From: Acidobacteria bacterium bin61
Lineage (GTDB): Bacteria; Acidobacteriota; Vicinamibacteria; Marinacidobacterales; SMYC01
Reading direction: 5' to 3'
DNA: 64,000 nt
Assembly: GCA_963578475.1 (NCBI GenBank)
Contig: CAUZCL010000005.1
Span: 60,530 to 124,529, forward strand
In this document: in pieces, positions 3,492-37,450 of the stretch
How positions within the stretch are numbered: the stretch's first letter is position 1
Layout: each line of letters starts with the position of its first letter
Notes under the pieces: model-generated
What the model was told of the DNA's origin: nothing
The model's input: the letters and a program-made list of their open reading frames with translations, nothing else
The model's database searches: none
Program-made: the position numbers and the translations under genes

Positions 3492-4504
3492 ATGCGCGTT
3501 CGGATGCCGCTACTCGTTCTACTCGCAGCCGCGTTCTCGTCTCCCGCCTGCCAAGACGTGCACGCGCCCGCGGTGGCGCCCGAGTCAGCCGATAACAAGC
3601 TCATCCAAAACCGCGGTGAAGGCAAAGATCGGTGGTGGGACAAGCTCCCGCGCGCGCGGCGTGAAGCGCTTTCACCAAGGTCGAACAAAGTCAGGACTGG
3701 TTCGAGGTCTACGAGCTCCAGCCAGGGCTTTTCGCTATCTATGAGCCGGGCCAGTTCGAGGAAGTGATCTCCTATCTTTTCGTCGGAACGGAAAAAGCGC
3801 TGCTCTTCGACGCGGGCATCGGTGTCAGCAATATGCGGCAAGTCGTCGCCGAGCTCACCGAGCTCGAGCCCATCGTCGTCAACTCTCACGCCCACTATGA
3901 CCATGTCGGCGGCAACCACTCTTTCTCGAAGGTCAGAGGCACCGAGACCAAGTACACCGCGCGCAACGCCAAGGGTCGCGCCCACGAAGCCGTCGCCGAG
4001 TTCGTCGGCGAAGGGTGGATTTGGAAGCCTACGCCGGACGGGTTTTCGAAAGAGAGCTACCGCTCTGAAGCGTTCGACGTCGTGGAAACGATACGGGACG
4101 GCGATGTCTTCGATCTGGGTGGCCGGAGTCTCGAAGTCCTTTGGACACCCGGGCACGCACCTGATGCGCTGTGTTTGCTCGATCGCGAGAACCGGCTTCT
4201 TCTCACCGGCGACACGTTCTACCCAGCAACGCTCTACGCCCATCTCGACGGGTCGGACTTCGCGGCTTATCGCGCGACGGCCCGGCGCCTATCCGCGCTC
4301 GCTGAAAAAGGCACCGACCACGTCGACACGCTGCTTCCCGCGCATAACGAGCCGTGGGTCTCGAGCGACTACTTAGAGAAGATGCGCGACGCGTTCGATT
4401 CCATCGCCCACGACGAGACCCCGTTCGTGCTCACGGACGGCAATCGCGAATACAAGTTCGATGGATTCACGATTCTGACACGCGATTCGCCAGCGACCCA
4501 GTAG
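3492..4504 (+). pseudogene. Secreted MBL-fold metallo-hydrolase, apparently frameshifted near 3650-3665
   Basis: Intact ORF 3764..4504 carries HAHYDHVGG (HxHxDH) and downstream His/Asp ligands. The expected MBL N-terminus (FEVYELQPGLFAIYEPGQFEEVISYLFVG) is encoded upstream in the same frame but without a start codon. A signal peptide (MRVRMPLLVLLAAAFSSPAC) is encoded in another frame (ORF 3453..3767). The frames meet in a cgcgcgcgcgg repeat. Confidence 0.55.
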
Positions 4505-4977
4505 TTACACGTCGGGTGGTAGAGAAGGCGGACGCGGAACGGCGCTCAGCCAACGCTTTTTGCGAGGCTTTCCGCTACCGGGTCTCTCCCACCCTTTCTT
4601 GCCGCCGGGGATCAGGCGGAACCGTGGCCGCGCGGCGCGCGGCGCGCACGCGTCGCAGAAACCCTGCCATTTGTCCGTGGGGCTCGAGCAGGATCGACAA
4701 GAACCGAACATAGCATAACTCCAAGTTGATAATTATAAGAGGGTTCAAGAAACTGTCCGGGGGGCCAATAGCCTCGAAACCCGCGCTGAGATTAACTCGA
4801 AACGTGCCTTGGACTCAAGCGGCGTGGGAAAAGCGCCTCCACGACCGTGGTGAGCGTCTCACCGCAATCGGCCTGGACCTTTACATCAAGCTCGCCATCC
4901 GCGCGGGTTTTGCCGAGATTCACCATCACGACGGGAATCTGGTTTTGCGCCGCGCGTTTCACGAATCGGTAGCCCGA

Positions 4978-5726
4978 CTAGACCATTAGCGAAGACCCGA
5001 CAACCAAAAGCGCGTCAGCCTCATCAACACGGGACATCGCTTCGGTCACGAAATCGCGAGGTACCGATTCGCCGAAGAAAACGACGTCGGGCTTCAAGAC
5101 CCCGCCGCAACACGCGCAATCGGGCGTACGAAAACGCTCTAGCTCCAGAGCGGCAGTATCAGTCTCGAGATCGGCGTCTCCGTCAGGCGCGAAGGCCGCC
5201 GCTTGCGCTCCAAAGGCGGGGTTCGCCTCGAAAAGCCGGTCCTGAAACTCGAGCCGGGGGCGCACGTCGCCACAATCGACGCAACGAACGCGGTCGATCC
5301 GTCCATGAAGATCGTTGACGTTGCGGCTTCCCGCCTTCTGGTGAAGGCCATCCACGTTTTGCGTGATGAGATAGCGAAGCGCGCCGTGCTCTTCGAGATG
5401 GGCGAGAGCTCGATGAGCGGCGTTCGGGCGAGCTTTCTCGACGAGACTCCACCCACCATGCTACGCGCCCAATAGCGCCGCCGAGCCTTCTCGCTTCCGA
5501 GAAAAGTTTGGTAGCGCATCGGCGGATTACGCTTCCACTCACCATCACCGTCGCGATAATCGGGAATCCCGGATGCGGAGCCGCAGCCAGCACCCGTGAG
5601 CGCCACGAGCCGCTCGGCGCGCGCGATGACCTCGGTCAGAGCGTGGAAGGCATGGAGGTCTTCACCGCCGCGGGATAGACTAGTGCTCGACGTTATGATG
5701 TGGCGCCTCACTTTGCTCGTTTCCAT
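4978..5726 (-). pseudogene. Sir2-family NAD-dependent protein deacylase (CobB/NpdA-like), split by a -1 frameshift in a short homopolymer (C-run on + strand) near 5450
   Basis: N-terminal ORF (5139..5726) gives LTGAGCGSASGIPDYRDGDGEW ... RRRYWARSMVGG. C-terminal frame (4978..5355 and upstream) gives GGWSLVEKARPNAAHRALAHLEEHGALRYLITQNVDGLHQKAGSRNV..LHG ... CxxC...CxxC ... VVGSSL. The two halves join in a gtgggtgg tract (one G missing relative to a continuous frame). Confidence 0.7.
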
Positions 5727-7005
5727 TCTTATCGCGAGCTCCGCCGATGCGCAGCCTCAAAGCAAGGCTCCGGACATCTGGGTCGAGCTCAAACGAAATA
5801 TGCACGCGCTCAGAGTCGCGATTCCCGAGCTCTCGGCGGCGAGCCCGGATGTGCGCGCCGACGCGGCAGAGGTACATCGCATAATGTTCGATGATATCTC
5901 GTTTGCCGCGGTTTTTCGGATCGTGGACCCGGAGCGGTACCAGCTCGTGAAAACTCTATCCGCCGGCTTCGACTATCACGGCTGGGAATCCATTGGCAGT
6001 GACATCGTGATTACCGGAACGGTGTCGCGGGAAAACCAAGCGCTTCGCGCTGCCATCCATGTTCACGCCGTGGAAAACGAGAAGACGGCCTTCTCGACCG
6101 TTTACACAGAATATCAAGGCTCGACGCGCAACCTCGCGCACAACGTCGCCAATCGCATTTTAGCCCAGTTCGGTCTCGTCGGGCTCGCAACGACCGACAT
6201 CGTCTTCGCGAGCAATCGAGACTCGAAGACCGGTAGCAAGAACCTGTGGATGATGGATTACGACGGCTTCGGCCAACGCGCGATCACGCGCAACCGCTAC
6301 CTCGATTTTCAGCCCCGCTTCAGCCCGGACGGAGCGAAGCTGAGCTTCTTGTCCTACCCGAAGAAAAACGCACCTCCCGTGCTCGCGATCCACGGCGAGG
6401 GGCCGCTCCTCGAAGGTCCGGGCATGCTGTTCTCGGCCTCATGGTCCCCTGACGGAAAACGCATCGCCTTTTCGTCGACGCGCGACGAAGCGGGTAACGC
6501 CGAGATCTACGTCATGAGTCGTGACGGGACCGCTATTCGTCGATTGACCCATCACCCGGGCATCGACGTCTCGCCTAGCTGGTCGCCGACTGGAAGAGAG
6601 CTCGTCTTCACGTCCGAAAGGACGGGGTCGCCGCAGATCTTTGTGATGGACGCCGAAGGTTTGAACCTGCGGCGGCTCTCACGTGGGGGGACGTATAACG
6701 CCGAGCCCTTCTGGTCCCCGTCCAAGATTCACCAAGAGATCGCCTATGTGTCACGCGTCGAAGGACGCCGGTTCGACATCGTCGTCTACGACCTCGCAAA
6801 CCGACAATTGCGCCAACTAACGTCTCAGTCGAGGATGAACGAGGGCGCGAGCTGGTCTCCCGACGGACGCCATCTCGTCTTCACATCCACCCGCACCGGC
6901 GAACCGCAAATCTTCATCATGAATCGAGACGGCGCCAACCAGCGGCAACTCACCTTCAAAGGCGCAAACACCACCCCGAGCTGGTCTCCCCTAAACCGCA
7001 ACTAG
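5695..7005 (+). CDS. TolB-like periplasmic protein (TolB N-terminal domain plus PD40 beta-propeller)
   Basis: Signal peptide MMWRLTLLVSILIASSADAQ, then repeated PD40 blades (SWSPDG, SWSPTG, FWSPS, SWSPDG, SWSP). Start moved to 5695 from the longer ORF 5596. Confidence 0.7.
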   Translation: MMWRLTLLVSILIASSADAQPQSKAPDIWVELKRNMHALRVAIPELSAASPDVRADAAEVHRIMFDDISFAAVFRIVDPERYQLVKTLSAGFDYHGWESIGSDIVITGTVSRENQALRAAIHVHAVENEKTAFSTVYTEYQGSTRNLAHNVANRILAQFGLVGLATTDIVFASNRDSKTGSKNLWMMDYDGFGQRAITRNRYLDFQPRFSPDGAKLSFLSYPKKNAPPVLAIHGEGPLLEGPGMLFSASWSPDGKRIAFSSTRDEAGNAEIYVMSRDGTAIRRLTHHPGIDVSPSWSPTGRELVFTSERTGSPQIFVMDAEGLNLRRLSRGGTYNAEPFWSPSKIHQEIAYVSRVEGRRFDIVVYDLANRQLRQLTSQSRMNEGASWSPDGRHLVFTSTRTGEPQIFIMNRDGANQRQLTFKGANTTPSWSPLNRN

Positions 7006-7599
7006 GACGATCTCGAACGTCAGCCCGAGCTTCTCTTTCGTTTTGACGGAGCCGCCGAGCGCCGAGAGTTGCGGCACACCCCAGCGTTTTGTGTCGAGCT
7101 CGAGCTCACCCGTCACGGTCATCCGCTCACCGGAAAACTCGAGTGTCACGGGAACCTTCAGTGGATGGCTTTCGCCTCGTAGTTTCAAGGTGTTTTCGAG
7201 CTCGAGTCGCATTGCTTCGCCGCGCTTATCGCGGACGCGGACCCGGGAGGACGTAAAGATTATCGTGGCGTATTCCGAGAGGGCGAGCACCTTGGTCTCC
7301 ATCTCGCCTTGGACCTTCGCGCGGTCGTCCTCGTCCAGCTTTTAGTCGGCAACGCTCAGCGAGGTCGGGTCGACCTCGAGCGTGAAACGGGAGCTCTCCG
7401 GCTCTTTGCTATTCCAGACCACCGTCCCAGTGAAAGCCCCGACGCGGATCCGGTGGTCGTGGCCAAACACCTTGAACAGTCCCGCGCGCCCAACCTCCAC
7501 TTCGAACTGACTTTCGTCCGGAGCGACGCGATAGGTTGTCGTCGTTTGCGGAACAACAACGACAAAAAACCCCGTCAAAAGCGATGAAATCCGCATCAT
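6991..7599 (-). pseudogene. YceI-like periplasmic protein interrupted by an in-frame TAA (7342-7344)
   Basis: ORFs 7342..7599 and 6991..7302 are in the same frame. Read-through gives a roughly 200-aa YceI-like protein (signal peptide, then VFGHDHRIRVGAFTGTVVWN ... and TVTGELELDTKRWGV). Confidence 0.7.
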
Positions 7600-7695
7600 A
7601 ACCCTCCCCTGGCGCCGGTCGCCCGATATAGAGATAATCTCAGACTAGCGCGGCACCGTTCGCCGGGCTGTTAACTAATACGCAACGCAATCCCC

Positions 7696-9511
7696 ATGGG
7701 AAGAATATCGAGCTACCTCCGCGTCGGGTTTCTGCTGTTGATCCTCAACAGCGGTTATCTACTCTCCAGAAATGAAGCGTCCATATTCTACGCGGCCAAC
7801 GTGCTGTTTCACGTCTCTCTCGCCCTCGGCCTCACTGGGCTCGCCATCTACGTCTACCGGCGTCTTGCGAAGAGCACCTTGTCCACATCGTCCTCGGTGC
7901 GAGCGCGCTCACGGGCGTAGCGCTCGTGGTTCTCGGAGCAGGCACGGCGACGCGCCCCCTTCTTCTCGCGCACATAGCCGTTGCCTCGCTCGCCGCCGCC
8001 GTCGTCGCGCTCTCGAGCAAGCTGCCGTCATCGTTCTCGGACTCGCCGCGCTCCTGCCTCTTGCCACGATCATGCGGAACAGCCTGACGCCTCCTCCCAC
8101 ACTCAATGCTGCGTTTGCGCCGATCTCGATGGAAGGTGAAGCCATGGGCGGCGCGAGAGGGCTTTTTTTCGTCTTCGGCCGAGACGCTCGACGGTGCGAC
8201 CATCCCGGCCGAGTTCTTCATGGGAAGTAAAGAATGCGGGCGCTGCCACACCGACATTTACAACCAATGGGAAAGCTCCGCCCACCGCAAGGCTTCGTTC
8301 AATAACCAGTGGTACCGAAAGTCCATCGAGTACATGCAAAGCGCCGTCGGAACGGAGCCGTCCAAGTGCTGCGGCGGCTGCCACGATCACGCGATCTTGT
8401 TCTCCGGCATGATGGACACGCCCATCGAGGAGATTATCGACCGGCCCGAGGCGCATGCCGGCCTCTCATGCACATCGTGCCACTCCATCGTGCGCGTAAA
8501 GAACACGATGGGGAAGGCAGGCTTCGTTATCGAATTTCCCGCTCTCCACGATCTCGCGACGAGCGAGAAACCCGTTATCCGAGCGCTCCATGACGTGCTC
8601 TTGCATCTCGATCCCGAGCCGCATCGGGAGACGTTTCTGAAGCCTCTGCACACGGGCGATAGCTCAGCCTTTTGCTCGACCTGTCACAAAGTCCACCTCG
8701 ACGCGCCGGTCAACCACTATCGCTGGATTCGTGGCTTCAATAGCTATGACAATTGGCAAGCGAGTGGCGTCTCCGGCGAAGGCGCGCGATCGTTCTACTA
8801 CCCCGACACGCCGAAAACTTGCACCGATTGCCACATGCCGTTCGTCCCGGGCTACGATCCGGCGGCGCCGGCAGGCCTCCTGCGATCCCACCCGCTTTTG
8901 CCGCGGCCAACACCGCGATTCCGACCGCCTATGGGGACGACGCGCAGCTCGAGGCCGTTCGAGACTTTCTTCAAGCAGGGCAAGTGACCGTCGACCTTTT
9001 CGCCCTCGTACGATCCGACGAGCCCGAGGCGGGGCAAGAGCTCGGCTCTCGAGGTCAGCAGCGCCAGCTAGCGAGCACCTTTGCCGTCGGAGAGGAAGCC
9101 GCGATGGCCATCCCCGGCCGTATGATGTCGCTGGCTGTTGCCTAAGAGGTGATCGCCCCTCTCGATCGGGCGCAGCCGTCGGTGATGCCGGGCGAGTCGG
9201 TGCGGATCGACGCCGTCGTGCGCACCCGCAATGTCGGGCATTTCTTTCCGGGCGGCACCGTCGACGCGTTCGACGTATGGGTCGAGCTGAAGACCGTCGA
9301 CAACGAAGGTCGCACCATCTTCTGGAGCGGCTATACCGATGATGACGGAAAAGGGCCGGTCGAGCCCGGCGCGCATTGCTATCGCTCGCTATTGCTCGAC
9401 GCCAAAGGCCAGCCCATCAACAAACGGCGGTGGCTCGTTCGAAGATGTGACCGCGGGCTCCGGCTTCGACCGCGCGGTCTATGGGATGGGCGTCGCGGTC
9501 GGCGATTATGA
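7696..9511 (+). pseudogene. Membrane-anchored multiheme cytochrome c (5 CxxCH) with a C-terminal beta-sandwich-like region; degraded by at least four frameshifts and one in-frame TAA
   Basis: TM helices are encoded successively in three frames (7696-7870, 7870-8010, 8010-8165), with a shift at a T7 run 8161-8167. Heme motifs CGRCH, CGGCH, CTSCH, CSTCH, CTDCH lie in ORF 8106..8987. The continuation is in frame 2 (8753..9145), followed by TAA at 9143-9145 and ORF 9149..9511. Confidence 0.55.
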
Positions 9512-10781
9512 CGGCGACGGTGACCGGGACGTCTATGTCACCGTGCTCGGTACAAACCTCTTGTTCCGTAACGACGGCGACGCCAAGTTCACCGAAATTG
9601 GGAAAGATGCTGGCGTCGACCACGACGGGTTTGGCTCGAGTGCGACCTGGCTCGACTACGACAAAGATGGCGACCTCGATCTCTTCGTGCTCAACTATGT
9701 TCAGTGGTCCATCGAAGAGGATCTCTTCTGTGCGCTCGACGGCCAGAACAAGAGCTATTGCACCCCCGAATCTTACGAAGGCGCGAGCGCGGTTCTCTAT
9801 CGCAATGACGGCAGAGGAAAGTTCACCGACGTGACCAAAGCTTCAGGGCTCGAAAACCCACGCGGCAAGGGACTCGGCGTGGCGGTGTTCGATTTCGATC
9901 TCGATGGCTGGCTCGATATCGCGGTCGCCAACGACACCCAGCCCAACTATCTCTATCAGAACAAGGGCAACGGAACCTTCGAAGATATCGGCGTGCTGTC
10001 CGGGATTGCGTTCGCCGAAAATGGCGCGGCGCGCGGCGCAATGGGGATCGACGCCTCCGACTACGACGCAAGCGGCCGACAGAGCCTCGTCATCGGCAAC
10101 TTTTCGAACGAGATGCTCTCGCTCTACCACAACGAAGGGCCCGGCTTTTTCATCGACCAGGCGCCTGTCTCCGAAATCGGCCGCGCGAGTCTCGTGACCC
10201 TGTCTTTCGCTTCGTTTTTATTCGACTACGACCTCGACGGCCACGAGGACATCTTCGTCGCGAACGGGCATGTCGAGAGCGACATTCACAACGTTCAGCA
10301 GCGCGTGAGCTACGCGCAGCCGCCGCATTTGTTCAAGAACCTCGGCGATGGCCGTTTTCGCGAAGTCACGCAGGAGATGGGCGAGCGCTTCGCCCTCCCG
10401 ATTGTCGGGCGCGGCGCGGCCTATGGCGATATCGATGGCGACGGCGATCTGGACCTCGTGGTGACGACGAGCGGAGGCCCGCCCCGGCTATTTCGAAACG
10501 ATGGAGGGAGCTCGAGCAATTGGATTGGATTCCAGCTTCGGGGCACGACGTCCAACCCGGAAGCCATCGGCGCGTTCGTGCGGGTCACAGCGGCAGGGCG
10601 CACCGAGACGCGGATGGTCAAGAGCGCTTCTGGCTATTGCTCCCAGAGCCAGCTTGCCGTCATCGTCGGGCTCGGCGCCACCGAAAAAGCCGACAAGGTC
10701 GAGATCTCCTGGCCGTCGGACGCCACGCAAACCATCGACGCCCTGGAGTCGAGGCGCATCCACGAAATCATCGAGCCCTAG
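9339..10781 (+). CDS. CRTAC1-family protein (FG-GAP repeats plus ASPIC/UnbV C-terminal domain); N-terminus lacks a signal peptide and may originally have been fused to the upstream cytochrome ORFs
   Basis: Repeated FG-GAP calcium-binding motifs (DYDGDGDRDVYV, DYDKDGDLDLFV, DFDLDGWLDIAV, DIDGDGDLDLVV) and C-terminal UnbV_ASPIC-like sequence (GAFVRVTAAGRTETRMV...SQSQLAVIVGLG). Apparent frame junction with ORF 9149..9511 near 9420-9430. Confidence 0.75.
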   Translation: MMTEKGRSSPARIAIARYCSTPKASPSTNGGGSFEDVTAGSGFDRAVYGMGVAVGDYDGDGDRDVYVTVLGTNLLFRNDGDAKFTEIGKDAGVDHDGFGSSATWLDYDKDGDLDLFVLNYVQWSIEEDLFCALDGQNKSYCTPESYEGASAVLYRNDGRGKFTDVTKASGLENPRGKGLGVAVFDFDLDGWLDIAVANDTQPNYLYQNKGNGTFEDIGVLSGIAFAENGAARGAMGIDASDYDASGRQSLVIGNFSNEMLSLYHNEGPGFFIDQAPVSEIGRASLVTLSFASFLFDYDLDGHEDIFVANGHVESDIHNVQQRVSYAQPPHLFKNLGDGRFREVTQEMGERFALPIVGRGAAYGDIDGDGDLDLVVTTSGGPPRLFRNDGGSSSNWIGFQLRGTTSNPEAIGAFVRVTAAGRTETRMVKSASGYCSQSQLAVIVGLGATEKADKVEISWPSDATQTIDALESRRIHEIIEP

Positions 10782-10980
10782 TGCCAAGGACCTACGCGCC
10801 ACACTCCTGGAATTTCGCGATCGATACGCCTATTTCCATATCGAGGTCGTCTTTTCGCGCAAGGAGCGTTTCGAGCGTGAATGCAAGCTGTACCATCGGA
10901 TGGGTGGCGATCGAGGTCAGCTCGACAACGAGCTCCATCCGCTGCCGCCCCGGGGCCGCAGCTAAAGTGCCCTGTCTGCG

Positions 10981-12624
<1,644 letters not shown>

Positions 12625-12681
12625 TTTTTTCTTGTCTCCAGTTGCAACTAGCCCTTCGGCATGCTTCTATCACAAACGCAC

Positions 12682-13593
12682 ATGCGATTCATGGTCTTTG
12701 GCGCCGGCGCTTTGGGAAGCCTCGTAGCCGCACGCCTATCTTCCGCCCATGAGGTCACTCTCGTCGGACGTCGCGAGCACGTTCTCGCCATCCGTGCATC
12801 TGGCCTGCGTGTAACAGGGCGCACGGAGTGCATCGCTACGACGATCGCGGCTGTCACAGAACCGATCGAGACACCACCCGACGTTGTGCTCGTTACCACC
12901 AAATCCTATGGGACGGCCGGAGCGGTCGAAGCTCTCGCAGGGTTCTCGAAACAGTCGATATTCGTGTCGCTCCAAAACGGTCTCGGGAACGAAGAGATTC
13001 TCGCGGAACGTGTTGAGAACGTTCTCGGCGCCGTGATCAATCAAGGTGTGACGTTCTTGGAGCCAGGCGCTGTCTATCACGCTGGCGAAGGCGAGACCGA
13101 GCTCGGAGCGTTCCAGGGAACGGCACCCGGTGATGCCGAACGGGTCGCCTGTGCGTTTCGCGAGACGGGTCTAGAAGCGCGCGCGGTCGAGGACATCCGC
13201 TCCAGTATCTGGCTCAAAGTCATCCTCAACGCCGCTGTGAACCCGCTCACGGCGCTGCTCGCAAAGCGTACGGGCGAGCTCATTGGCGACCCCGCCCTCG
13301 AAAGCGCCATCCGCCTCATCGTTCACGAGTCCGTCGCGATCGCGCGGGCCGCAGGCGTAGCGCTCGAGGAAAATACCGTCCTCGAGCAAATTTGGAGCGT
13401 TGCGCGCGCGACTAAAGACAACAAATCAAGCATGTTACAGGATCTTCAAAGAGGGCGACGCACTGAGATCGACGCCATCAACGGAGCGCTCTTGGACCGC
13501 GCGCGCTCTCTCGGCGTCGCCGCCCCCCAAAACGAGCTATTATTTCACCTAGTTCGAGCCGCCGGACAGAACAAAACGCCACGTCCAACGTAA
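12682..13593 (+). CDS. panE: 2-dehydropantoate 2-reductase (ApbA/PanE family)
   Basis: N-terminal Rossmann MRFMVFGAGALGS, ketopantoate-reductase family C-terminal helical domain. ORF listed from 12661; the internal ATG at 12682 fits the family N-terminus better. TAA stop. Confidence 0.75.
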   Translation: MRFMVFGAGALGSLVAARLSSAHEVTLVGRREHVLAIRASGLRVTGRTECIATTIAAVTEPIETPPDVVLVTTKSYGTAGAVEALAGFSKQSIFVSLQNGLGNEEILAERVENVLGAVINQGVTFLEPGAVYHAGEGETELGAFQGTAPGDAERVACAFRETGLEARAVEDIRSSIWLKVILNAAVNPLTALLAKRTGELIGDPALESAIRLIVHESVAIARAAGVALEENTVLEQIWSVARATKDNKSSMLQDLQRGRRTEIDAINGALLDRARSLGVAAPQNELLFHLVRAAGQNKTPRPT

Positions 13594-13622
13594 CAACAAT
13601 GTTCAGCCGCGCCTAGGGGGGA

Positions 13623-14237
13623 GTGCCCATGAGCCAGGAACGTCGTCGCCAGTCGATCCCGCGACTGGTCTTGGTGCCTGCCCTCGTTACTCTTGCGCTC
13701 ACCCAGCTTCGACTTACCGGAGATCTGCTCGGCTGGTCCGAGATGGGGCTGCCTTTCGAGATCGCGTGGCTCGTTCCGCTCTTTGGCGCCTATTTTGCGC
13801 TCCATCTGCGGAAAGTGGACGACTCCACGCCGAGCGCAGCACGCGTGCTCCGCGGCACACTTCTCCCGCTCGTGCTCTTTATCACCGGGCTCATCCTGCT
13901 CCGCCCGACGTCCGGCGGGATGGGGCTTTTGTCGCTCATCGCCATCGTCCTCGTGCAACGGAATTGGTCGAGACTCGGAAACGCTCTCCTCACTTACGCG
14001 TTCGCGGCGCGCCTTCCGGTGATCATCACGATGCTCGCCGCCACCCTCGGCCGCTGGGACACGGTCTTCGATGTGTCACCCTACAACACGCTCGCGGGCA
14101 CGCTGCCACAGTTGACGGTCTGGCTCGCATTCACCGTTGTCGCTGGCAGCGTGGCAGCGTCGGCCGCCCTCGCCGTGCGCAAGCGGTACCGCGCTGAGGA
14201 AACGAGGCCGTTTCCTGGCTCCACTGCTCCGGGCTAA
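13623..14237 (+). CDS. Hypothetical integral membrane protein (about 5 TM helices)
   Basis: Hydrophobic segments throughout the 204-aa translation; no recognised catalytic motif. Confidence 0.45.
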   Translation: MPMSQERRRQSIPRLVLVPALVTLALTQLRLTGDLLGWSEMGLPFEIAWLVPLFGAYFALHLRKVDDSTPSAARVLRGTLLPLVLFITGLILLRPTSGGMGLLSLIAIVLVQRNWSRLGNALLTYAFAARLPVIITMLAATLGRWDTVFDVSPYNTLAGTLPQLTVWLAFTVVAGSVAASAALAVRKRYRAEETRPFPGSTAPG

Positions 14238-14378
14238 CAACCACCGATCGGGGCGGCCGGAAGCCTTCCACTTCCCGAGGTCTGGGACCGTTCTTGTCAT
14301 ACCGAACACGATGGGATGCAGAATTAGTGAATGACTCGGTAGGATTTGCTTTGACCGCCCTCCCGCTGGAGCAGATTC

Positions 14379-14900
14379 TCAGAGGCGCGGGTCTTCGAGC
14401 CAAGCATCGAGCTCGGAGAGCCGTGCTGCCTCTTTTGCCCATCGACGCGCATCGTCGCCCAGCGAGGGATGCTTCTTGAGCAGAACCGCAACGTCCAACA
14501 AGTGTCGCGCGGCGCCGGCGCGCAACTTTAGACGCAGCAAGTCCGGTAAGTCGACGACGCGCAGCTCGCCTCCACCGGGTATCGGCACGACCGTCGCGTT
14601 CTCCCACTGAATCGCCACAGGCGGTGGCAAGATTTGAAAGGACACGTCCCCGACGCTCCCGTGAATCACCCAAGGGAGGTCCCCCGCGAGTACGTCTCCG
14701 CGTCTTAGCTCGGTCTCAATCCCATCATTCGTCAGAAGTCGTTGGAGCTCCTCAGGGCTTTCGCTCGATACGAAATCAACATCCTCCGTCGCGCGGACGT
14801 GACCCCAGGCAGAGACGGCCAGCCCATCGATGAGAAGACTCTCCGCCCCAAGGATCGAAGCCACCCGGACGGCCGCTTTAGCGAGGTCATCGTCGTTCAT
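14379..14900 (-). CDS. Minimal nucleotidyltransferase-fold protein (Pol-beta superfamily)
   Basis: hG[S]x9-13 D-h-D pattern: LIDGLAVSAWGHVRATEDVDFV. Internal ATG at 14900 chosen (ORF listed to 14954). Confidence 0.4.
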   Translation of the reverse strand: MNDDDLAKAAVRVASILGAESLLIDGLAVSAWGHVRATEDVDFVSSESPEELQRLLTNDGIETELRRGDVLAGDLPWVIHGSVGDVSFQILPPPVAIQWENATVVPIPGGGELRVVDLPDLLRLKLRAGAARHLLDVAVLLKKHPSLGDDARRWAKEAARLSELDAWLEDPRL

Positions 14901-15146
14901 GACTCGCTTCGACCTTCTCACGAAGCAACGCGCAAAAAGCACTGAGCGCGGCACATCGAAGGATGCGCTCGCCCATTTTCACAGCAAGCTGAGCACGCGT
15001 CCGGTCTTCAGCCTGCATTCGATCGATTTTCTTCGCCACGGAGCTCATGTTCGCCCGAGTGGCCACGTAAGAGCCACCACCCGCTTGTTCCCGCCTCGGC
15101 CGGCGGATATCATGCGCAAACATTGCCACGAATAAGGGGGGCCACC

Positions 15147-17252
15147 GTGTTACGCCGCTTTCTTGTCACCGTCACCGTCTCCCTGGTGGCTGCCGCGAGC
15201 CTCGCGCAGTCGCCGTTCACCCTCGAGCAGATCTTGAGCGCGCCATTCCCCACCACCCTCGTCGCGGCGCCGAATCACGGAAAGCTCGCTTGGGTGCAAA
15301 ATGCCGAGGGGAAACGGAACATTTGGGTAGCGCTAGAGCCGGGCTACGAAGCGCGTCAGCTCACACGCTACGACAAGGATGACGGCCAGGAGATCACCGG
15401 GCTTCACTTCGGTCCGGGGGCGAACCACATCGTGTTCGTTCGCGGCGGAGCACCGAACCGCGCGGGCGAGACCCCAAACCCGCGCAGTGAGCCCGACGGC
15501 GTCGAGCGTTCGATCTGGATCATCGAAGTAGCTAGCGGCGAGCCGCACGAGCTCGCCGAAGGCAGCAGCGCGGTAATCTCTCCGGACGGCGAGACGGTGG
15601 CCTTCGTACACGACGACCAAATCTGGACCGTCCCCGCGGTCGACGAAGGCGAGCCGAAACAGCTATCCGAAACGCGCGGCCGCGCCTCGGAGCTACGGTG
15701 GCCACCTGATGGCTCGAAGCTCGCCTTTGTGAGCCGCCGCGGCGATCACAGCTTCGTTGGCGTCTACAGTTTCACCGAAAAGCGGATTCACTATCTGGAT
15801 CCAGGCCTCGGACGCGATGACGATCCCGTATGGTCCTCCGATGGCGACGAAGTCGCCTTTATCCGCATCCCCAACGAACGCCAACGTCTGCCTTTCGGTC
15901 CACGAAGGGCGGGAGTGCCTTGGTCCATCCGCATCGCCCATGCCGAGACCGGGGAAGGCCGGCTCGTCTTCGAAGCAGACCACGGCATGGGAAGCGTCTT
16001 CCACAGCGTGTCCGCTCAGAACCAGCTCATCTGGGGAGAGGGTAATCGACTGGTGTTTCCCTGGGAGAAAGATGGCTGGACACATCTTTATTCGATCCCG
16101 ACCTCGGGCGGCTCGGCAACGCTTCTGACGCCCGGGGATTTCGAAGTCGAGCATGTGTTCGCGAGCTCGGACAGAACTGAGCTTCTTTACTCATCGAACC
16201 AGGACGACATCGACCGCCGGCACATCTTCCGCGTCGCGGTGTCAGGAGGGCCGCCGCGGGCCGTGACGAGCGGCAACGGGATCGAATGGTCGCCCGTCAT
16301 GACAGGCGATGGCGGTGCCATCGCCTATCTGGCCTCTACCGCCAAAACTCCCGCGCACGCAAAGATCCGCATCGGGACGAGTGGCGACCGTCCGCTCGCC
16401 GCATCGTCGCTGCCGGCCGACTTTCCCAATTCCCTCGTCGAGCCCGAGCAAGTGCTCCTCTCCGCGGCCGACGGAATGCGCTTCCACGGCCAGGTCTTCC
16501 TGCCCGCGAATCACCGCAGCGGCGAACGCCATCCTGCCGTTATTTTCTTTCACGGGGGCTCGCGCCGACAGATGCTGCTCGGTTGGCACTATATGGGCTA
16601 CTACCATAACGCCTACGCACTCAATCAATATCTCGCCAGCCGCGGCTACGTGGTGCTCTCCGTCAATTATCGTAGCGGCGTGGGCTACGGCATGGAGTTC
16701 CGCGAAGCGCTCAACTACGGCGCGAACGGCGCGAGCGAGTTCCAGGACGTCGTAGGCGCCGGGCTGTATTTGAGAGGCCGGGACGATGTCGACCCCGACA
16801 AGATTGCACTCTGGGGAGGCTCCTATGGCGGCTACCTCACTGCTCTTGGCCTCTCGCGCGCGCCCGATCTGTTCGCCGCCGGCGTCGATATCCACGGGGT
16901 CCATGACTGGAATATCGTGATCCGAAACTTTGTTCCAACCTATGACGCCGAGAAGCACGCCGCCTTTGCACGGCTCGCTTTCGAATCGTCACCCATGGCA
17001 TCCATCGACGGCTGGCGAGCTCCCGTGCTCTTGATTCACGGCGACGACGATCGCAATGTCCCCTTCAGTGAGTCGGTCGATCTCGCCGAAGCACTCGCCA
17101 AACGGAATGTCGATTACGAGGAGCTCGTCTTTCCCGACGAGGTCCATGGATTCTTGCTTCACGAGAACTGGCTGAAGGCCTTTCGCGCGGCGGCCGACTT
17201 TATCGACCGCAAGCTCGAAGCCGCGCCATCGTCCACGGAGGAACAACCATGA
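15147..17252 (+). CDS. S9 family serine peptidase (beta-propeller plus alpha/beta-hydrolase; dipeptidyl/acylaminoacyl peptidase-like), secreted
   Basis: Signal peptide MLRRFLVTVTVSLVAAASLAQS after GTG at 15147 (AAGGGGGG RBS). N-terminal propeller, catalytic GGSYGG Ser motif, Asp and His (EVHGF) in the C-terminal domain. Confidence 0.85.
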   Translation: MLRRFLVTVTVSLVAAASLAQSPFTLEQILSAPFPTTLVAAPNHGKLAWVQNAEGKRNIWVALEPGYEARQLTRYDKDDGQEITGLHFGPGANHIVFVRGGAPNRAGETPNPRSEPDGVERSIWIIEVASGEPHELAEGSSAVISPDGETVAFVHDDQIWTVPAVDEGEPKQLSETRGRASELRWPPDGSKLAFVSRRGDHSFVGVYSFTEKRIHYLDPGLGRDDDPVWSSDGDEVAFIRIPNERQRLPFGPRRAGVPWSIRIAHAETGEGRLVFEADHGMGSVFHSVSAQNQLIWGEGNRLVFPWEKDGWTHLYSIPTSGGSATLLTPGDFEVEHVFASSDRTELLYSSNQDDIDRRHIFRVAVSGGPPRAVTSGNGIEWSPVMTGDGGAIAYLASTAKTPAHAKIRIGTSGDRPLAASSLPADFPNSLVEPEQVLLSAADGMRFHGQVFLPANHRSGERHPAVIFFHGGSRRQMLLGWHYMGYYHNAYALNQYLASRGYVVLSVNYRSGVGYGMEFREALNYGANGASEFQDVVGAGLYLRGRDDVDPDKIALWGGSYGGYLTALGLSRAPDLFAAGVDIHGVHDWNIVIRNFVPTYDAEKHAAFARLAFESSPMASIDGWRAPVLLIHGDDDRNVPFSESVDLAEALAKRNVDYEELVFPDEVHGFLLHENWLKAFRAAADFIDRKLEAAPSSTEEQP

Positions 17253-26883: not shown

Positions 26884-26938
26884 CCAGGACCCAGACTTTG
26901 TGCTCGTCGTTGCTCATTCGCGTCGTCTCGGGGGAGCC

Positions 26939-27375: not shown

Positions 27376-29166
27376 ATGGTGATGCTTCTTTGGCTCGTGC
27401 TCGCGCAAAGTGTCGAGATCGAACCGTTGGGCGACTTCGCGCTTCCTTATCGCGCCGATTACGTCGGCTCGGAGCGCTGCGGCGCATGCCACCAGGATCT
27501 CGTCGAGCAAGGAAAGACCCACCACATGGCCCAGACCGGGCGTCCCGCGAATGCAAGCGACCCGCTTTTTTCGACCGCGTCGGGCGAGGGCGCCCAGACC
27601 ATTCCACGCGCCGAGGACGTTTCCGCAATCCTCGGCTCGGGAAAGCACGGTGTCACCCCGATCCGAGCCGCTCCCGGACGCGCCATCCGCGAGCACTTGC
27701 TGTCTTACTCGGCCGTTCTCGGAAGCTGGTTCCGCACACCGGGCACGGAAGACACCGACGACCCTCTCGGGAGCCCCCAGACAGTCGAGGGGTCACGTGC
27801 CTGCCTCGGCTGTCACGCGACCACGATCGCATGGAAAGACAATGTCCTAGTCGCGTCGCAGTCCGAGCTCGGGATTCAATGCCAGCGATGCCACGGCCCC
27901 GGAAGCGCGCATATCGACGCTGTTGCCGGCGACTCGCCGGAAGCAACCAAGATATTCAACCCCGGCGTTCTGACGAGGCACGGACAGGTACGTTTTTGCG
28001 CGCAGTGCCACCGCCAACCCATCGACATCGAGCCGCTCGAGGTGCTTGGGCGCGACAAAAAGCTCGCGCGTCACGCGGGGGCGGGACTAATGATGAGCGC
28101 ATGTTTTCGCTCGTCGCCGCGGGATCGTACGCTGACCTGCACCGACTGCCACAGTCCGCATAGAAACACCACTGCCGCCGATCACGTCCAATATCGTGAA
28201 ACGTGCTTGCGTTGCCACACCGAGCCCGGTCCCGCGCACGAGTACGAGCGGGTCACACCGTCTTCGGACTGCATCGGCTGCCACATGCCGAAAGAGTCGG
28301 AGGGTTTCTACGGCATGACGTTCACCGATCATTGGATTCGGGTGCCGGGTCGCGCCTCGCGTCAACGTGACGACCTGGACTACCTCGAGCTTCTCTATCG
28401 CAACGAGTGGGAGATCGACGGGATCGGCGAAGAAAGGCGCTCTCGCCTCGCACTTGGGCTCGCAGAAATCTTCTTTGGGCTCGGGCGGGGCGAGGACGCA
28501 TTCCAGTGGGTACGCGAGAGCTTGAGCCACGCCCCCGAAACGCAGCATCGACTCAAAGCGGCCGCAATGTTCCGGGAAGGCGGCGCGCTCGACGAGGCAG
28601 AAGCCATTCTGCACGAAGCACTTGGCCTCGACGCCAATCTGTTGCGCGCCCATTTCGATCTCGGAGAGATCGCTGCGGAGCGCGGTGCGTATGAAGAAGC
28701 GACGGCCCACTACGAGCGGGCCCTGGCTATCAGAAACGATTTCGCCGAAGGCCATACTGCTCTGGGAGCTGCGCTGCGGCACCAGCATCGTTTGACGGAA
28801 GCGCTCGAGCATTATCGCGCGGCCTTCAACCTGGCACCGGAAAACTCGCCTGATGACTGGATGGTGCTCGACGGCCTCGCCTGGGTCCTCGCGACACACC
28901 CCGAGCCCGCGTTGAGAGATCCCGAGGAGGCTTTGCGACTCGCCGAGCGAGCGGCGACGGTTACCGACTACAACAACCCGATCGTGCTCGATACGCTCGC
29001 GGCCGCCTATGCTGCGACAGGAGACCTAGTGACGGCACGAAACGCCGTCCAGCGAGCGATCGAGATCGCGGAAAAAGCTGGAGTCAGCGAGCTGGTCGCG
29101 GTTTTCCACGAGCGGCTCGCGGTCTACGAGAGCGGAGCGGCCTTCGTGGCACCGCCCCCGCGCTAG
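27376..29166 (+). CDS. Multiheme cytochrome c (7 CxxCH) fused to a C-terminal TPR-repeat domain
   Basis: CGACH, CLGCH, CQRCH, CAQCH, CTDCH, CLRCH, CIGCH in the N-terminal roughly 330 aa. C-terminal roughly 250 aa forms TPR-like helical repeats. Confidence 0.8.
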   Translation: MVMLLWLVLAQSVEIEPLGDFALPYRADYVGSERCGACHQDLVEQGKTHHMAQTGRPANASDPLFSTASGEGAQTIPRAEDVSAILGSGKHGVTPIRAAPGRAIREHLLSYSAVLGSWFRTPGTEDTDDPLGSPQTVEGSRACLGCHATTIAWKDNVLVASQSELGIQCQRCHGPGSAHIDAVAGDSPEATKIFNPGVLTRHGQVRFCAQCHRQPIDIEPLEVLGRDKKLARHAGAGLMMSACFRSSPRDRTLTCTDCHSPHRNTTAADHVQYRETCLRCHTEPGPAHEYERVTPSSDCIGCHMPKESEGFYGMTFTDHWIRVPGRASRQRDDLDYLELLYRNEWEIDGIGEERRSRLALGLAEIFFGLGRGEDAFQWVRESLSHAPETQHRLKAAAMFREGGALDEAEAILHEALGLDANLLRAHFDLGEIAAERGAYEEATAHYERALAIRNDFAEGHTALGAALRHQHRLTEALEHYRAAFNLAPENSPDDWMVLDGLAWVLATHPEPALRDPEEALRLAERAATVTDYNNPIVLDTLAAAYAATGDLVTARNAVQRAIEIAEKAGVSELVAVFHERLAVYESGAAFVAPPPR

Positions 29167-29176
29167 AGGAGTCCCG

Positions 29177-29701: not shown

Positions 29702-29736
29702 CGAGTGCCTCCTTTTCCGTGTCGGCGGAGATTCGG

Positions 29737-33562: not shown

Positions 33563-35254
33563 ATGAACCAACGACTCGCGCTCCTCGTTTGCACAACCTA
33601 CCTCTCAACATTCGCGATTCGCCACACCGAGGCGCAAGATGACGCCTTTTTCACCGACATTACCGAAGCGGTCGGGCTCGACTTCGAGCACGAGCCAGGC
33701 ACGGAGGGAAACTACTGGGCGCCCGAGGTCATGGGCTCGGGAGGCGCTTTCTTCGATTTCGACGGCGATGGGGATCTCGGCATCTACCTGATCCAAGGCG
33801 GCTCGCTCCCCGAATCCAAGAGTACGAAGCGCCTTCCGAACAGGCTGTTTCGTCAAAACGACGACGGATCCTTCGAAGACGTGACCGAAAGCTCCGGTTT
33901 GGGCAACACCGGCTACGGGACGGGCGTGGCCATCGGGGACGTCGACAATGATGGCCTCGTCGACGTCTATGTCGGGAACTACGGACCCGACGCCCTCTAC
34001 CGCGGCAAAGGCAACGGTATCTTCGAGGACATCACCAAAGCCGCGGGTATCGCGGACAACGCATGGACAGCCTCGATCGCGTTTTGCGACTACGATGCCG
34101 ACGGTTTCTTGGATATCTACGTCTCACGTTACGTCAAACACGACGCCACCAAAAAATGCGTCAGCGGTTCCGGCGCCTCGGACTATTGCAGCCCCCAGAG
34201 CTTCGACTACGAGAGTGACACACTCTATAAGAACGATGGCGACGGTACGTTCACGGACGTTTCCAAAAAAGCCGGTATCGCCACCGTCGAAGCACCGGGC
34301 CTCGGAGTTCTTTGCCAGGATTTTACTGGCGATGGATTATTGGATTTCTACGTCGCCAACGACGGCGAAGCCAATCAGCTTTGGGAAAATGCCGGCGATG
34401 GAACGTTCTCGGACCAGGCAATCATCATGGGCGCGGCTCTAAACTCGTTTGGTCGTCCCGAGGCGAGCATGGGGGTAGCACTCGGCGACGTGGATGGCGA
34501 CAGCGATTTCGACCTGTTCATGACGCATTTGATCAACCAGACCAATACGCTCTATTTGAACGACGGCACTTGGGGCTTCGAAGACGTCACCTCTGCACGG
34601 GGGCTCGGGGCGTCGAGTTTGGAATATACGGGGTTCGGCACGGCTTTCGTGGACCTGGATTTGGACGGAGATTTGGACCTCGCCGTGGTGAACGGCCGCG
34701 TGGATCAGAAGCCGGCGCATCCCGACGCGAAGCTCGGTGACTATTGGAACCTCTACGCGGAGCCGAATTTCCTTCTGGAAAATGATGGCAGCGGAAAATT
34801 CAAAGACATTAGCGAAAAAGGCGGCGCGTTCACCTCCCTCGTCGAGATCAGCCGAGGTCTCGTTCTCGGTGACGTCGATCGCGATGGGGACATCGACTTC
34901 CTGGTGTCGAACACCGCGGGACGCGCCCGGTTGTTCCGCAACGACGCTCCGAGAAAGGGCCGCTACTTGATGGTGCGCGCCTACGACAAAGAGCTCCAGC
35001 GCGATGCGCACGGCGCCGTTGTCACGGTGAGCGCTTCAGGCAAGACCTATGCGCGCACCGCCGATTCCAGTTATAGCTATCTGTCCAGCAACGAGCCAAA
35101 GGCGCATTTCGGAATTCCTGGCGCGAGCCGCGCGGATTCGATTCGAGTGCGCTGGCCCGACGGATCCGAAGAGGTTTTTCCCGGCGTGGAGCTAGACCAG
35201 GCCGTGACGCTCGAAAAGGGCAAAGGCCGCAAAGCCACGAATCCCGGAAACTGA
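33563..35254 (+). CDS. CRTAC1-family secreted protein (FG-GAP repeats plus ASPIC/UnbV domain)
   Basis: Signal peptide; FDFDGDGDLGIYL, DYDADGFLDIYV, DFTGDGLLDFYV, DLDLDGDLDLAV, DVDRDGDIDFLV. C-terminal UnbV_ASPIC-like end. Confidence 0.85.
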   Translation: MNQRLALLVCTTYLSTFAIRHTEAQDDAFFTDITEAVGLDFEHEPGTEGNYWAPEVMGSGGAFFDFDGDGDLGIYLIQGGSLPESKSTKRLPNRLFRQNDDGSFEDVTESSGLGNTGYGTGVAIGDVDNDGLVDVYVGNYGPDALYRGKGNGIFEDITKAAGIADNAWTASIAFCDYDADGFLDIYVSRYVKHDATKKCVSGSGASDYCSPQSFDYESDTLYKNDGDGTFTDVSKKAGIATVEAPGLGVLCQDFTGDGLLDFYVANDGEANQLWENAGDGTFSDQAIIMGAALNSFGRPEASMGVALGDVDGDSDFDLFMTHLINQTNTLYLNDGTWGFEDVTSARGLGASSLEYTGFGTAFVDLDLDGDLDLAVVNGRVDQKPAHPDAKLGDYWNLYAEPNFLLENDGSGKFKDISEKGGAFTSLVEISRGLVLGDVDRDGDIDFLVSNTAGRARLFRNDAPRKGRYLMVRAYDKELQRDAHGAVVTVSASGKTYARTADSSYSYLSSNEPKAHFGIPGASRADSIRVRWPDGSEEVFPGVELDQAVTLEKGKGRKATNPGN

Positions 35255-37450
35255 ATGGCATACTTTTCTTCCGAGAAGAAGCTGCCCTCCCTTCTTCTCT
35301 GCGTTTTCTTGCTCTTTCTCGTCGCCGTGGTGCTTCGAGCGCAGCCGAGTGACGGGCATGCCCGCATGCTCGAGTTGCTGCGACAGATCATCGAGCGTGC
35401 TCCGAACGAAAGCCTCTATCTCGGCGATGGGGAGGCTCGGGCGATGAGGGCTCGCGTCGAGGCGCTCGGACCGGATGCTCCCGACTACGTTCAGTTCGAG
35501 GCCTATTTGAAGCTCGGTGAGGCGGAACAACATGTCGGTCGGGAACAGGCGGCCATCGACTACCTCGAGCGCGCTCACGCCCTGCTGCCGCAGCTCGAGA
35601 ACGACTTGGCGCCAAATTGGATTGGGCGGCTGAAGTTCGCGTTGGGAGTGGCTCATCTTCGTTTCGGGGAGACTCAGAACTGCGCGCTGCACCACGCCCC
35701 AGAAAGTTGCCTTCTCCCGATTCGCGGTAGCGGCATACACGTCCTCAAGGAGCCATCCGAACGAGCGAGCGTGTTCTTCACCGAGGTCTTACAGCACGAC
35801 CCACCTGGTTCGAAAGCGTATCTCACCGCCCAGTGGCTTCTGAACATCGCCTATATGACTCTCGGCCGCTACCCCGAAGATGTGCCTCATGACTACCTCA
35901 TTCCGCCGGAGGTCTTCAGCTCCGACGAGCCTTTCCCTCGGTTCAATAACGTCGCGCAGGAAGCGGGGATGGCGACGTTCGCTCTATCGGGCGGCGTCGT
36001 TGTCGAGGACTTCGACGAGGACGGTTTCCTCGATTTGCTCGTCTCCTCCTACGACCCTTCGGAGCAACTCCGCCTGTTTCAGAACAACGAGGACAAGACA
36101 TTCACCGACGTGACGCTAAACGCTGGGATAGTAGGTATTTACGGCGGCCTCAACATGGTGCAGGCCGACTACGACGACGACGGCGACATGGACGTGCTTG
36201 TTTTGCGCGGCGGGTGGCTCGGCAAAGGCGGGCAACATCCGAACTCGCTCCTTCGGAACAACGGCGATGGCACGTTCACCGACGTCACCTTCGACGCGGG
36301 GCTCGGTGAAGTGCACTTGCCAACACAGACCGCGTCATGGGCCGATTTCGACAACGATGGTGACGTGGACCTCTATATCGGGAATGAGACCAACGGCGGA
36401 CTCGACGGTTTGTGTCAACTATTCGAGAACCTTGGCAACGGTCGGTTCGCCGACGTGGCGCCCAGTGCCGGAGTAACCAACAGAAAGTTCACGAAAGCAG
36501 TTATCTGGGGTGACTATGACGGCGATCGGTACCCGGATCTGTTCGTGTCCAACGTCGATGGAGCCAATCGCCTCTATCACAACAACCGCGACGGAACGTT
36601 CGACGACGTCGCGATGGCACTCGGCGTCACCGAGCCGGCCACGAGCTTTCCCGCATGGTTTTGGGACTACGACAATGATGGCGTGCTGGATCTCTACGTG
36701 ACCGGCTACGACGCACTCGTGGACGACGTTGCGCGATCCTATCTCGGGGAGCCGTTCACCGCGGAATTGGCTCGCCTCTATCGCGGCGATGGCAAGGGTG
36801 GTTTCGTGGACATGACCTCCGCTACCGGGCTGACGCGGCCGAGCGCTCCCATGGGATCCAATTTCGGTGACTTGAACGGCGATGGCTTCCTGGACTTCTA
36901 TCTGGGAACCGGCTACACCGCCTATTTCGCGTTGGTGCCCAACCTGATGTATCTCAATCTCGAAGGCAAGCGCTTTGCCGACGTGACGACCGCAGGTGGC
37001 TTCGGTCACTTACAGAAAGGGCACGGCGTCGCCTTCGTCGACTTCGACAATGACGGCGATCAGGACGTCTTCGAGCAAATGGGGGGTGCACTGCCCGGCG
37101 ACAAGTACTTCGACGTTCTCTACGAGAACCCCGGGTTCTCTAACCACTATCTCGCCGTCGAGCTCTTCGGCAGGGAGACGAACCGCGCCGCGATCGGTGC
37201 TCGCATCCGCGTGGACGTCGCGGCCTCGAACGGGAGCCGCTCCATCTACAAGCACGTGAACAGCGGGGGCAGCTTCGGGGCCAACTCGATCCGCCGGCAG
37301 CTCATCGGACTCGGGAACGCGGAGCGTATCGAACGGCTTACGATTTATTGGCCGACGACGGATCGTACGCAGACCTTCGAGAACGTGCCGCTCGACCGAA
37401 CGATCCAGATCGTCGAAAACCTCGATAGCTTACGGCTGCTTCCCTTCTGA
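35255..37450 (+). CDS. CRTAC1-family secreted protein with an N-terminal helical (TPR-like) extension
   Basis: Signal peptide, roughly 200-aa helical N-domain, FG-GAP repeats (DFDEDGFLDLLV, DYDDDGDMDVLV, DFDNDGDVDLYI, DYDGDRYPDLFV, DFDNDGDQDVF), UnbV_ASPIC C-terminus. Starts 1 nt after the upstream stop. Confidence 0.85.
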   Translation: MAYFSSEKKLPSLLLCVFLLFLVAVVLRAQPSDGHARMLELLRQIIERAPNESLYLGDGEARAMRARVEALGPDAPDYVQFEAYLKLGEAEQHVGREQAAIDYLERAHALLPQLENDLAPNWIGRLKFALGVAHLRFGETQNCALHHAPESCLLPIRGSGIHVLKEPSERASVFFTEVLQHDPPGSKAYLTAQWLLNIAYMTLGRYPEDVPHDYLIPPEVFSSDEPFPRFNNVAQEAGMATFALSGGVVVEDFDEDGFLDLLVSSYDPSEQLRLFQNNEDKTFTDVTLNAGIVGIYGGLNMVQADYDDDGDMDVLVLRGGWLGKGGQHPNSLLRNNGDGTFTDVTFDAGLGEVHLPTQTASWADFDNDGDVDLYIGNETNGGLDGLCQLFENLGNGRFADVAPSAGVTNRKFTKAVIWGDYDGDRYPDLFVSNVDGANRLYHNNRDGTFDDVAMALGVTEPATSFPAWFWDYDNDGVLDLYVTGYDALVDDVARSYLGEPFTAELARLYRGDGKGGFVDMTSATGLTRPSAPMGSNFGDLNGDGFLDFYLGTGYTAYFALVPNLMYLNLEGKRFADVTTAGGFGHLQKGHGVAFVDFDNDGDQDVFEQMGGALPGDKYFDVLYENPGFSNHYLAVELFGRETNRAAIGARIRVDVAASNGSRSIYKHVNSGGSFGANSIRRQLIGLGNAERIERLTIYWPTTDRTQTFENVPLDRTIQIVENLDSLRLLPF

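Follow-up and report, generated by a model that had tools for sequence, protein, structure and literature searches.

The question raised by positions 7696-10781 of the DNA analysed here, a 64,000-nucleotide stretch of Acidobacteria bacterium bin61 (hereafter the window; GenBank assembly GCA_963578475.1, contig CAUZCL010000005.1, positions 60,530 to 124,529 of the forward strand), is whether a pentahaem cytochrome c that appears to run directly into a CRTAC1-family FG-GAP/ASPIC protein is the relic of a single fused gene, as the original prediction suggested. The comparisons presented here indicate that the locus is very probably the decaying remnant of a two-gene operon, and neither a fused gene nor a degraded fusion. 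The ancestral arrangement comprised a ~907-aa inner-membrane pentahaem cytochrome c with a C-terminal tetratricopeptide repeat (TPR) domain and, directly downstream with a 4-nt start/stop overlap, a ~540-aa Sec-secreted CRTAC1 beta-propeller; an illegitimate 1247-bp deletion involving GG microhomology then joined the two stumps out of frame.

Translation of the open reading frames (ORFs) divides 7696-10781 of the forward strand into six fragments spread over three frames. Two hydrophobic ORFs (7696-7920, frame 1; 7926-8087, frame 0) are followed by the longest surviving cytochrome ORF (8106-8987, frame 0, 293 aa; Pfam Cytochrome_C554, E 1.5e-9), by frame-2 continuations of the cytochrome and a beta-sandwich (8753-9145 and 9149-9511) and by an FG-GAP/ASPIC ORF of 480 aa (9339-10781, frame 0), all on the forward strand. 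The five CXXCH motifs of the cytochrome, located by motif search at approximately 8235-8249, 8370-8384, 8469-8483, 8673-8687 and 8820-8834 (CGRCH, CGGCH, CTSCH, CSTCH and CTDCH), are all still encoded in conserved context, and both transmembrane histidine motifs are also present, although ANVLFHVSL lies in frame 1 and LLLAHIAVA in frame 0 as a consequence of a 1-bp loss at 7881. NCBIfam models returned nothing over cut-off. The ORFs and Pfam matches confirm the anatomy originally described (membrane anchor, five CXXCH motifs, beta-sandwich and FG-GAP/ASPIC), as well as the statement that the ASPIC ORF has no signal peptide of its own, its translated N-terminus containing no hydrophobic stretch.

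When the cytochrome frames were stitched into one protein and used as a homologue query, the product matched the database protein P0001 with 1199 bits and 94% identity, and the 907-aa protein P0002 with 87% identity, a similarity that, by these scores, is beyond chance. Aligned in this way, the locus resolves into two parts. The first (7696..9427, +) corresponds to codons 1-581 of P0002, read in frames 1, 0, 2, 0 and 2, and is the pseudogene remnant of a ~907-aa membrane pentahaem cytochrome c-TPR gene; it retains the transmembrane histidines, every one of the five CXXCH motifs and the beginning of the beta-sandwich, but is frame-broken and ends at codon 581 without TPRs or tail, whereas members of the family are encoded by one ORF of ~900 aa. 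Homology to the P0002-like family is certain from the alignment, which identifies the window copy as a pseudogene and not a functional member. The second part (9428..10781, +) is a 5'-truncated CRTAC1 gene, i.e. an FG-GAP/VCBS beta-propeller plus UnbV_ASPIC, that covers codons 90-540 without internal lesions. It keeps the domains of the CRTAC1/ASPIC-UnbV family (Pfam FG-GAP_3 in seven stretches, E 9.5e-43; UnbV_ASPIC, E 7.5e-16), but lacks codons 1-89 and the Sec signal and is translatable only from an accidental ATG in a foreign frame. That ATG is supplied by 9339..9427 (+; MMTEKGRSSPARIAIARYCSTPKASPSTN), a spurious 5' extension, such that residues 1-29 of the 480-aa ORF stem from out-of-frame translation of cytochrome DNA; the ATG is preceded, at a distance of 12 nt, by a weak GGAG.

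The origin of this arrangement can be read from two relatives. A contig of a sister species (L001, GCA_964491595.1), which carries P0002 and whose gene order matches the window flanks, encodes in turn a TolB-like protein, YceI (reverse strand), the cytochrome-TPR protein (907 aa), CRTAC1 (540 aa; 4999-6621), a PilZ protein (276 aa), IlvD (reverse strand) and ApbA, with the CRTAC1 start overlapping the cytochrome stop by 4 nt (4999-5002). A same-species contig that carries P0001 (L002) has the same gene order and 98.6% DNA identity to the window over 8.7 kb. BLASTN aligns window 5000-9427 collinearly to L002 4233-8669, and window 9426-9556 to L002 9915-10045, which places a deletion junction with GG microhomology at 9426..9428 (+; break at 9427/9428). 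Compared with L002 the window has lost 1247 bp here (8670-9916), and compared with L001 it has lost 1246 bp (4022-5267). At this junction the cytochrome reading ...INKR runs out of frame into CRTAC1 codon 90 (GGGSFEDVT). The deletion took the last ~326 cytochrome codons, i.e. the remainder of the beta-sandwich, all of the TPRs and the conserved ...NNER.IHEH tail, together with the gene boundary and codons 1-89 of CRTAC1, including the start codon and the Sec signal with which the L002 orthologue opens (MKSHVLFFSLLLLPRASVGA), and which is absent from the window. The CRTAC1 stump that is left shares 91% DNA identity with its orthologue in L001. The 1247-bp deletion thus accounts both for the abutting frames and for the absence of a signal peptide.

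Abutting frames and an ASPIC ORF without a signal peptide are also what a single ancestral cytochrome-CRTAC1 gene, later broken by frameshifts, would leave behind, and a few database proteins (P0121, P0122, P0123 and P0150) do join both halves. The closest relatives, however, have two genes, in which CRTAC1 possesses its own start and Sec signal; the abutment in the window exactly matches the out-of-frame 1247-bp deletion; and the genes are separate at 65 of the 72 loci compared below. An independent start and signal peptide for the ASPIC gene, the existence of which the original prediction had left in question, are present in the relatives as the native ones and have been deleted in the window. 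The proposal of an ancestral fusion is not borne out by these data, and we consider it extremely improbable. Nor do the joined database proteins lend it support. We searched for fusions with a chimeric query that mimics the join in the window, and read the sequences of the four two-domain proteins, the only ones in the top 120 hits. Long stretches of low complexity that are out of frame led us to reject P0122 and P0150 as frameshift read-through, and P0121 (1520 aa) was rejected as the read-through of a lost stop codon, the CRTAC1 signal peptide being retained internally. P0123 (780 aa; L086 6001-8343) is instead an independent in-frame deletion chimera in another lineage, in which the cytochrome is joined, near the end of its beta-sandwich, to approximately residue 335 of CRTAC1; it occurs on four contigs, two of them longer than 1 Mb, and a small PilZ gene is again found nearby. 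As far as these sequences allow us to judge, apparent natural cytochrome-CRTAC1 fusions are rare and mostly artefacts, and internal deletion has removed the cytochrome-CRTAC1 operon on more than one occasion, in the window and in the lineage of P0123.

Besides the large deletion, the cytochrome stump contains five indels, of which four break the frame, and one nonsense codon (lesions were called against L002 and polarised with L001 as outgroup; all on the forward strand). Three deletions fall in the transmembrane region (1 bp at 7881/7882, 6 bp, in frame, at 7999/8000 and 1 bp at 8022/8023), a 2-bp lesion at 8162..8169 consists of two single-base losses on either side of a T7 run, a 2-bp insertion at 8893..8894, in the conserved RSHRF motif, moves the reading from frame 0 to frame 2, and an in-frame TAA stands at 9143..9145 where both L002 and L001 have GAA. 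Those indels that L001 can polarise are all derived in the window lineage, and at two indel columns L001 matched neither sequence. Selenocysteine insertion or read-through at in-frame stops was considered and rejected, the stop at 9143 being a TAA in place of GAA; likewise, the TGA at 27367 was rejected as a recoded stop, in that it is only the end of an ORF (26566-27369) that looks non-coding, has no Pfam hit and lies antisense to an FtsX gene. Derived cytochrome substitutions are mostly non-synonymous, with non-synonymous to synonymous counts of 10:4 for the window and 9:2 for L002, and several strike invariant residues, e.g. W228C in SKWC (W to C at 8369). In L002, too, the cytochrome gene is broken, a frameshift within its TPR portion leaving pieces of 740 and 161 aa. 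Because the L002 gene is also frameshifted and the changes are mostly non-synonymous, the cytochrome-TPR gene was probably already inactive, on this sequence comparison, in the common ancestor of the two, before the window and L002 strains diverged. The cytochrome-TPR gene would accordingly have been inactivated first, with CRTAC1 lost later through the deletion; the 480-aa ORF would have stayed open for no other reason than that the deletion happened recently and that the cytochrome-derived DNA upstream offers a chance ATG.

Several observations weigh against the interpretation of the locus as two dead genes. The six small lesions all lie in the cytochrome stump, the 1.35 kb of the CRTAC1 stump being free of them, an asymmetry with P ~0.03 if lesions fall at random along the 3085-bp locus, which could mean that the truncated CRTAC1 ORF is still under selection. 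Support for the lesions comes only from their recurrence across assemblies, and these assemblies may sample one clonal population. Finally, a contig assembled independently from another sample (L093, ENA ERZ27247711 k141_1608234) is identical to the window over 10594-19624, but its terminal 330 nt (window 10266-10593, within CRTAC1) differ at 44 sites, 34 of them synonymous, and the contig stops there; this end reflects either recombination between strains, which would bring in a third CRTAC1 allele, or chimerism at the end of the contig, and points to strain heterogeneity at the locus. If the asymmetry is taken at face value, the 480-aa ORF (9339-10781) might be a functional neo-gene, i.e. 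a signal-less, N-terminally truncated CRTAC1 kept by selection, for which the contrast between its 1.35 kb and the adjacent 1.73 kb with six lesions, an available ATG with its weak GGAG, and conservation of the ORF on six contigs can be adduced. Such a protein would, however, lack an export signal and ~89 N-terminal residues of a closed beta-propeller, and would begin with 29 residues of out-of-frame cytochrome sequence; the six contigs may represent one population; and earlier death of the cytochrome gene explains the lesion asymmetry equally well. A promoter and terminator scan of 7300-11100 gave nothing above shuffled expectation at a useful position, and in particular no promoter-like site 5' of the ORF. 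Selection for a neo-gene is, on balance, most unlikely.

It could also be argued that sequencing or assembly error produced the frameshifts and the deletion, and that the living organism has intact genes, given that the sequence derives from a metagenome assembly, that the lesions cluster within ~1 kb and that two of the indels touch homopolymer runs (8162-8169 and 8893-8896). The other three indels, however, lie outside homopolymers, two lesions are stops created by base substitution, and ~15 kb of flanking genes are intact relative to L001 and L002; in addition, the non-synonymous excess fits a real relaxation of selection. The exact 480-aa product that spans the junction is encoded on six assembled contigs, mostly with the same neighbouring proteins, which disfavours a one-off error. 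A 174-kb contig from a short-read (k141) assembly, resembling the source contig, is 100% identical to the window, assemblies from two further runs match it at 100% identity over 17376-39166, where they overlap it, and the junction of a deletion in the adjoining PilZ gene (described below) recurs in L093, from a different sample. Assembly error is unlikely to be the cause of the lesions, and intact genes in the organism appear very improbable. The decaying two-gene operon is the interpretation that we retain.

The original prediction also proposed that multihaem cytochromes and TPR modules recurrently accompany CRTAC1 genes, and here the analysis of gene neighbourhoods supports it. One genome per species was scanned, giving 80 loci that encode relatives at least 51% identical, almost all of them from Acidobacteriota, of which 72 have enough downstream sequence to be scored. 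In these raw frequencies, which are given without a per-genome CRTAC1 baseline, a same-strand CRTAC1 gene lies within ~1.2 kb of the cytochrome-TPR stop at 65/72 loci and within 400 nt at 55/72, the CRTAC1 start and the cytochrome-TPR stop overlap by exactly 1 or 4 nt at 20/72, and the remaining seven loci have no downstream CRTAC1. The pairing is a real and conserved gene-order signal. Many loci contain a weaker second CRTAC1-like match further downstream, which at all three of the loci scanned for it is a TPR-CRTAC1 protein of ~1170 aa. More distant pentahaem members vary, with no CRTAC1 nearby at L083 and a convergent CRTAC1 pair at L084. At L008 (6367-10351), in a Marinacidobacterium genome, the cytochrome-TPR match is ~4 kb long, with no CRTAC1 downstream, and may represent a tandem cytochrome duplication. 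The cytochrome family itself is large, with more than 7,900 homologues found and 567 clusters (50% identity, E<=1e-30). Of the 120 best homologues, nearly all are ~900-960 aa in length with C-terminal TPRs, and none contains FG-GAP or ASPIC domains. In databases the proteins are named 'tetratricopeptide repeat protein', 'multiheme c-type cytochrome' or, as misnomers, 'PilF/TadD', and a literature search for CRTAC1/ASPIC together with multihaem cytochromes found no description of either the operon or the cytochrome-TPR family.

As a preliminary view of what the intact module might do, P0002 was modelled with AlphaFold2 from 110 homologues (predicted local distance difference test, pLDDT, 85.5; predicted template modelling score, pTM, 0.86). 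In the model, the chain begins with five helices, passes through a haem domain and a beta-sandwich into seven or eight TPR pairs, and closes with a short strand at the C-terminus, which suggests that the intact protein consists of a five-helix cytochrome-b-like membrane domain, a pentahaem c552-like domain, a beta-sandwich and a TPR domain. The transmembrane histidines H39 and H93 are invariant in the 110 sequences, and the membrane domain that contains them probably holds a b-type haem. In a proposed conduit comparable to that of CbcL (see below), electrons from the quinol pool would then pass via this haem b through the five c-haems, in their c552/NrfA-like fold, and the CRTAC1 propeller or propellers, co-translated and exported, would dock on the TPR platform. 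A search of the PDB with the family profile returned only TPR proteins among the 60 best matches listed. A conserved DNNER..IHEH tail follows the TPRs (P0002 residues 892-902), in which H900 is invariant and residues 901-902 are modelled as the short strand; it is possible that this tail folds back towards the haem domain, where it might serve as a haem ligand. Taken together, it is possible, though we advance it as a tentative proposal, that this is a widespread and so far undescribed periplasmic redox module, in which a cytochrome b-like/pentahaem c552-like/TPR protein hands electrons to, or scaffolds, one or two co-translated CRTAC1 propellers, and which is dispensable and repeatedly lost by internal deletion. 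It counts against this proposal that its haem b and TPR-docking components draw only on fold similarity, conservation and gene order.

Of the nearest known systems, the pentahaem cytochrome c552 of Thermochromatium tepidum (PDB 5ZE8), which has an NrfA-like fold (COG3303), shares only 13-16% identity with the family and is soluble, whereas the P0002-like proteins add the five-helix membrane domain, the beta-sandwich and the TPRs; the function of c552 is itself unknown (bioRxiv 10.1101/2023.11.21.568154). Assignment as an NrfA nitrite reductase was rejected, in that the haem motifs are exclusively CXXCH with no CXXCK, and there was no NrfA hit in Pfam or NCBIfam. A parallel in overall logic is provided by CbcL and ImcH of Geobacter, inner-membrane quinol oxidoreductases in which, as suggested here for the P0002-like family, a b-type-like multi-helix membrane domain is fused to a periplasmic multihaem c domain, the membrane domain of CbcL being HydC/FdnI-like (PMC6295460). 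The order of domains is different, however, with the haems of CbcL N-terminal and its six transmembrane helices C-terminal, the haem counts differ (five in the P0002-like family, nine in CbcL and seven in ImcH), and the CbcL/ImcH systems have neither a TPR domain nor a CRTAC1 partner; the relationship is better described as a resemblance than as membership. With regard to the gene neighbourhood, a 'CRTAC1 family' FG-GAP gene has been described between haem c protein genes in the hydrazine synthase (HZS)-like clusters of non-anammox bacteria (PMC12758564), the only related published case that we found. Those clusters, which belong to other taxa, encode homologues of HZS alpha and beta-gamma as their haem proteins and no TPR, unlike the operon type represented in the window; nevertheless, they indicate that CRTAC1-cytochrome neighbourhoods are not unique to the cytochrome-TPR operon.

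Gene decay around the locus extends beyond the two stumps. Upstream, on the reverse strand, a YceI-family gene (6991..7599) carries a premature TAA at 7342-7344, where L001 has GAA, and is split into 103 and 85 aa; the same split is present in L002, whilst the L001 gene is intact (201 aa). Beyond it, a SIR2-family (deacetylase) gene (4792..5520, reverse strand) has, relative to L002, a 1-bp deletion near codon 23 and a tryptophan codon changed to a stop. Downstream, at 10783..10992 (+), approximately the last 70 codons of the PilZ-domain gene survive with one further frameshift, ~675 bp having been deleted relative to L001, which covers the first ~209 codons and the intergenic spacer. As aligned here, 4792-10992 (~6 kb) is a zone of local decay; outside it, the genes that can be compared with L001 and L002 (window ~760-21100) are intact, and the composition profile shows no GC anomaly pointing to foreign DNA. 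The yceJ-yceI pair of E. coli prompted the idea that YceI might generally accompany the cytochrome, which was rejected, since the two genes are adjacent only in L001, L002 and L004. Separately, the DNA of window 14258-17153 is not found at this position in L001; it holds a 709-aa ORF (15123-17252), which on contig L092, identical to the window, is called as a gene of 701 aa with PD40/Tricorn/DPPIV_N and Peptidase_S9 domains.

A second neighbourhood, at 27376-37450, had been cited as an intact counterpart of the degraded locus, and the genes described there are indeed present. They comprise an intact 7-haem (c7/NrfB-like) cytochrome-TPR gene (27376..29166, +; seven CXXCH motifs plus TPR) of a family different from the degraded pentahaem one, a GWxTD plus TPR protein (29737-31908, reverse strand), a TPR protein (31986-33425, reverse strand), and two intact CRTAC1 genes on the forward strand, one encoding an FG-GAP/ASPIC protein of 563 aa (33563-35254) and the other a CRTAC1 protein of 731 aa with a helical N-terminus (35255-37450). 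This tandem pair (33563..37450) resembles genes 2 and 3, i.e. CRTAC1 and TPR-CRTAC1, of the fuller cytochrome-TPR operons. At six marine Vicinamibacteria loci a c7/NrfB-like cytochrome-TPR gene is the third gene of the operon, its product being 27% identical (E 5e-15) to that of 27376-29166; as it occurs at only these six loci, the 7-haem protein was rejected as a universal third gene. The gene for a 59%-identical homologue of the window 7-haem protein adjoins a convergent CRTAC1 pair, whereas that for a 41%-identical one does not. When the window was compared with two further loci (L090 and L091), all three shared the 7-haem cytochrome-TPR and GWxTD-TPR proteins; two had TPR-only proteins, two the CRTAC1 pair and two a CarboxypepD_reg/OMP beta-barrel. 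The grouping at 27376-41340 may thus represent a looser second type of neighbourhood, the products of which may span the envelope.

The locus itself is an ordinary pair of pseudogenes produced by deletion and frameshift, and should be neither annotated nor counted as a cytochrome-CRTAC1 fusion; its ORFs of 480 and 293 aa are relics. It provides an example of local gene decay in a marine acidobacterium that has not been cultured, and shows that deletion between neighbouring genes can mimic a Rosetta-stone fusion. The intact gene pair, in contrast, is very common in Acidobacteriota and tightly operonic, with no characterised member, and its gene order ties the bacterial CRTAC1 propellers, the function of which is unknown, to membrane-anchored multihaem electron transfer in a manner that is open to experimental test. 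If the proposed redox module is correct, it would provide the first mechanistic context for the bacterial CRTAC1/ASPIC family.

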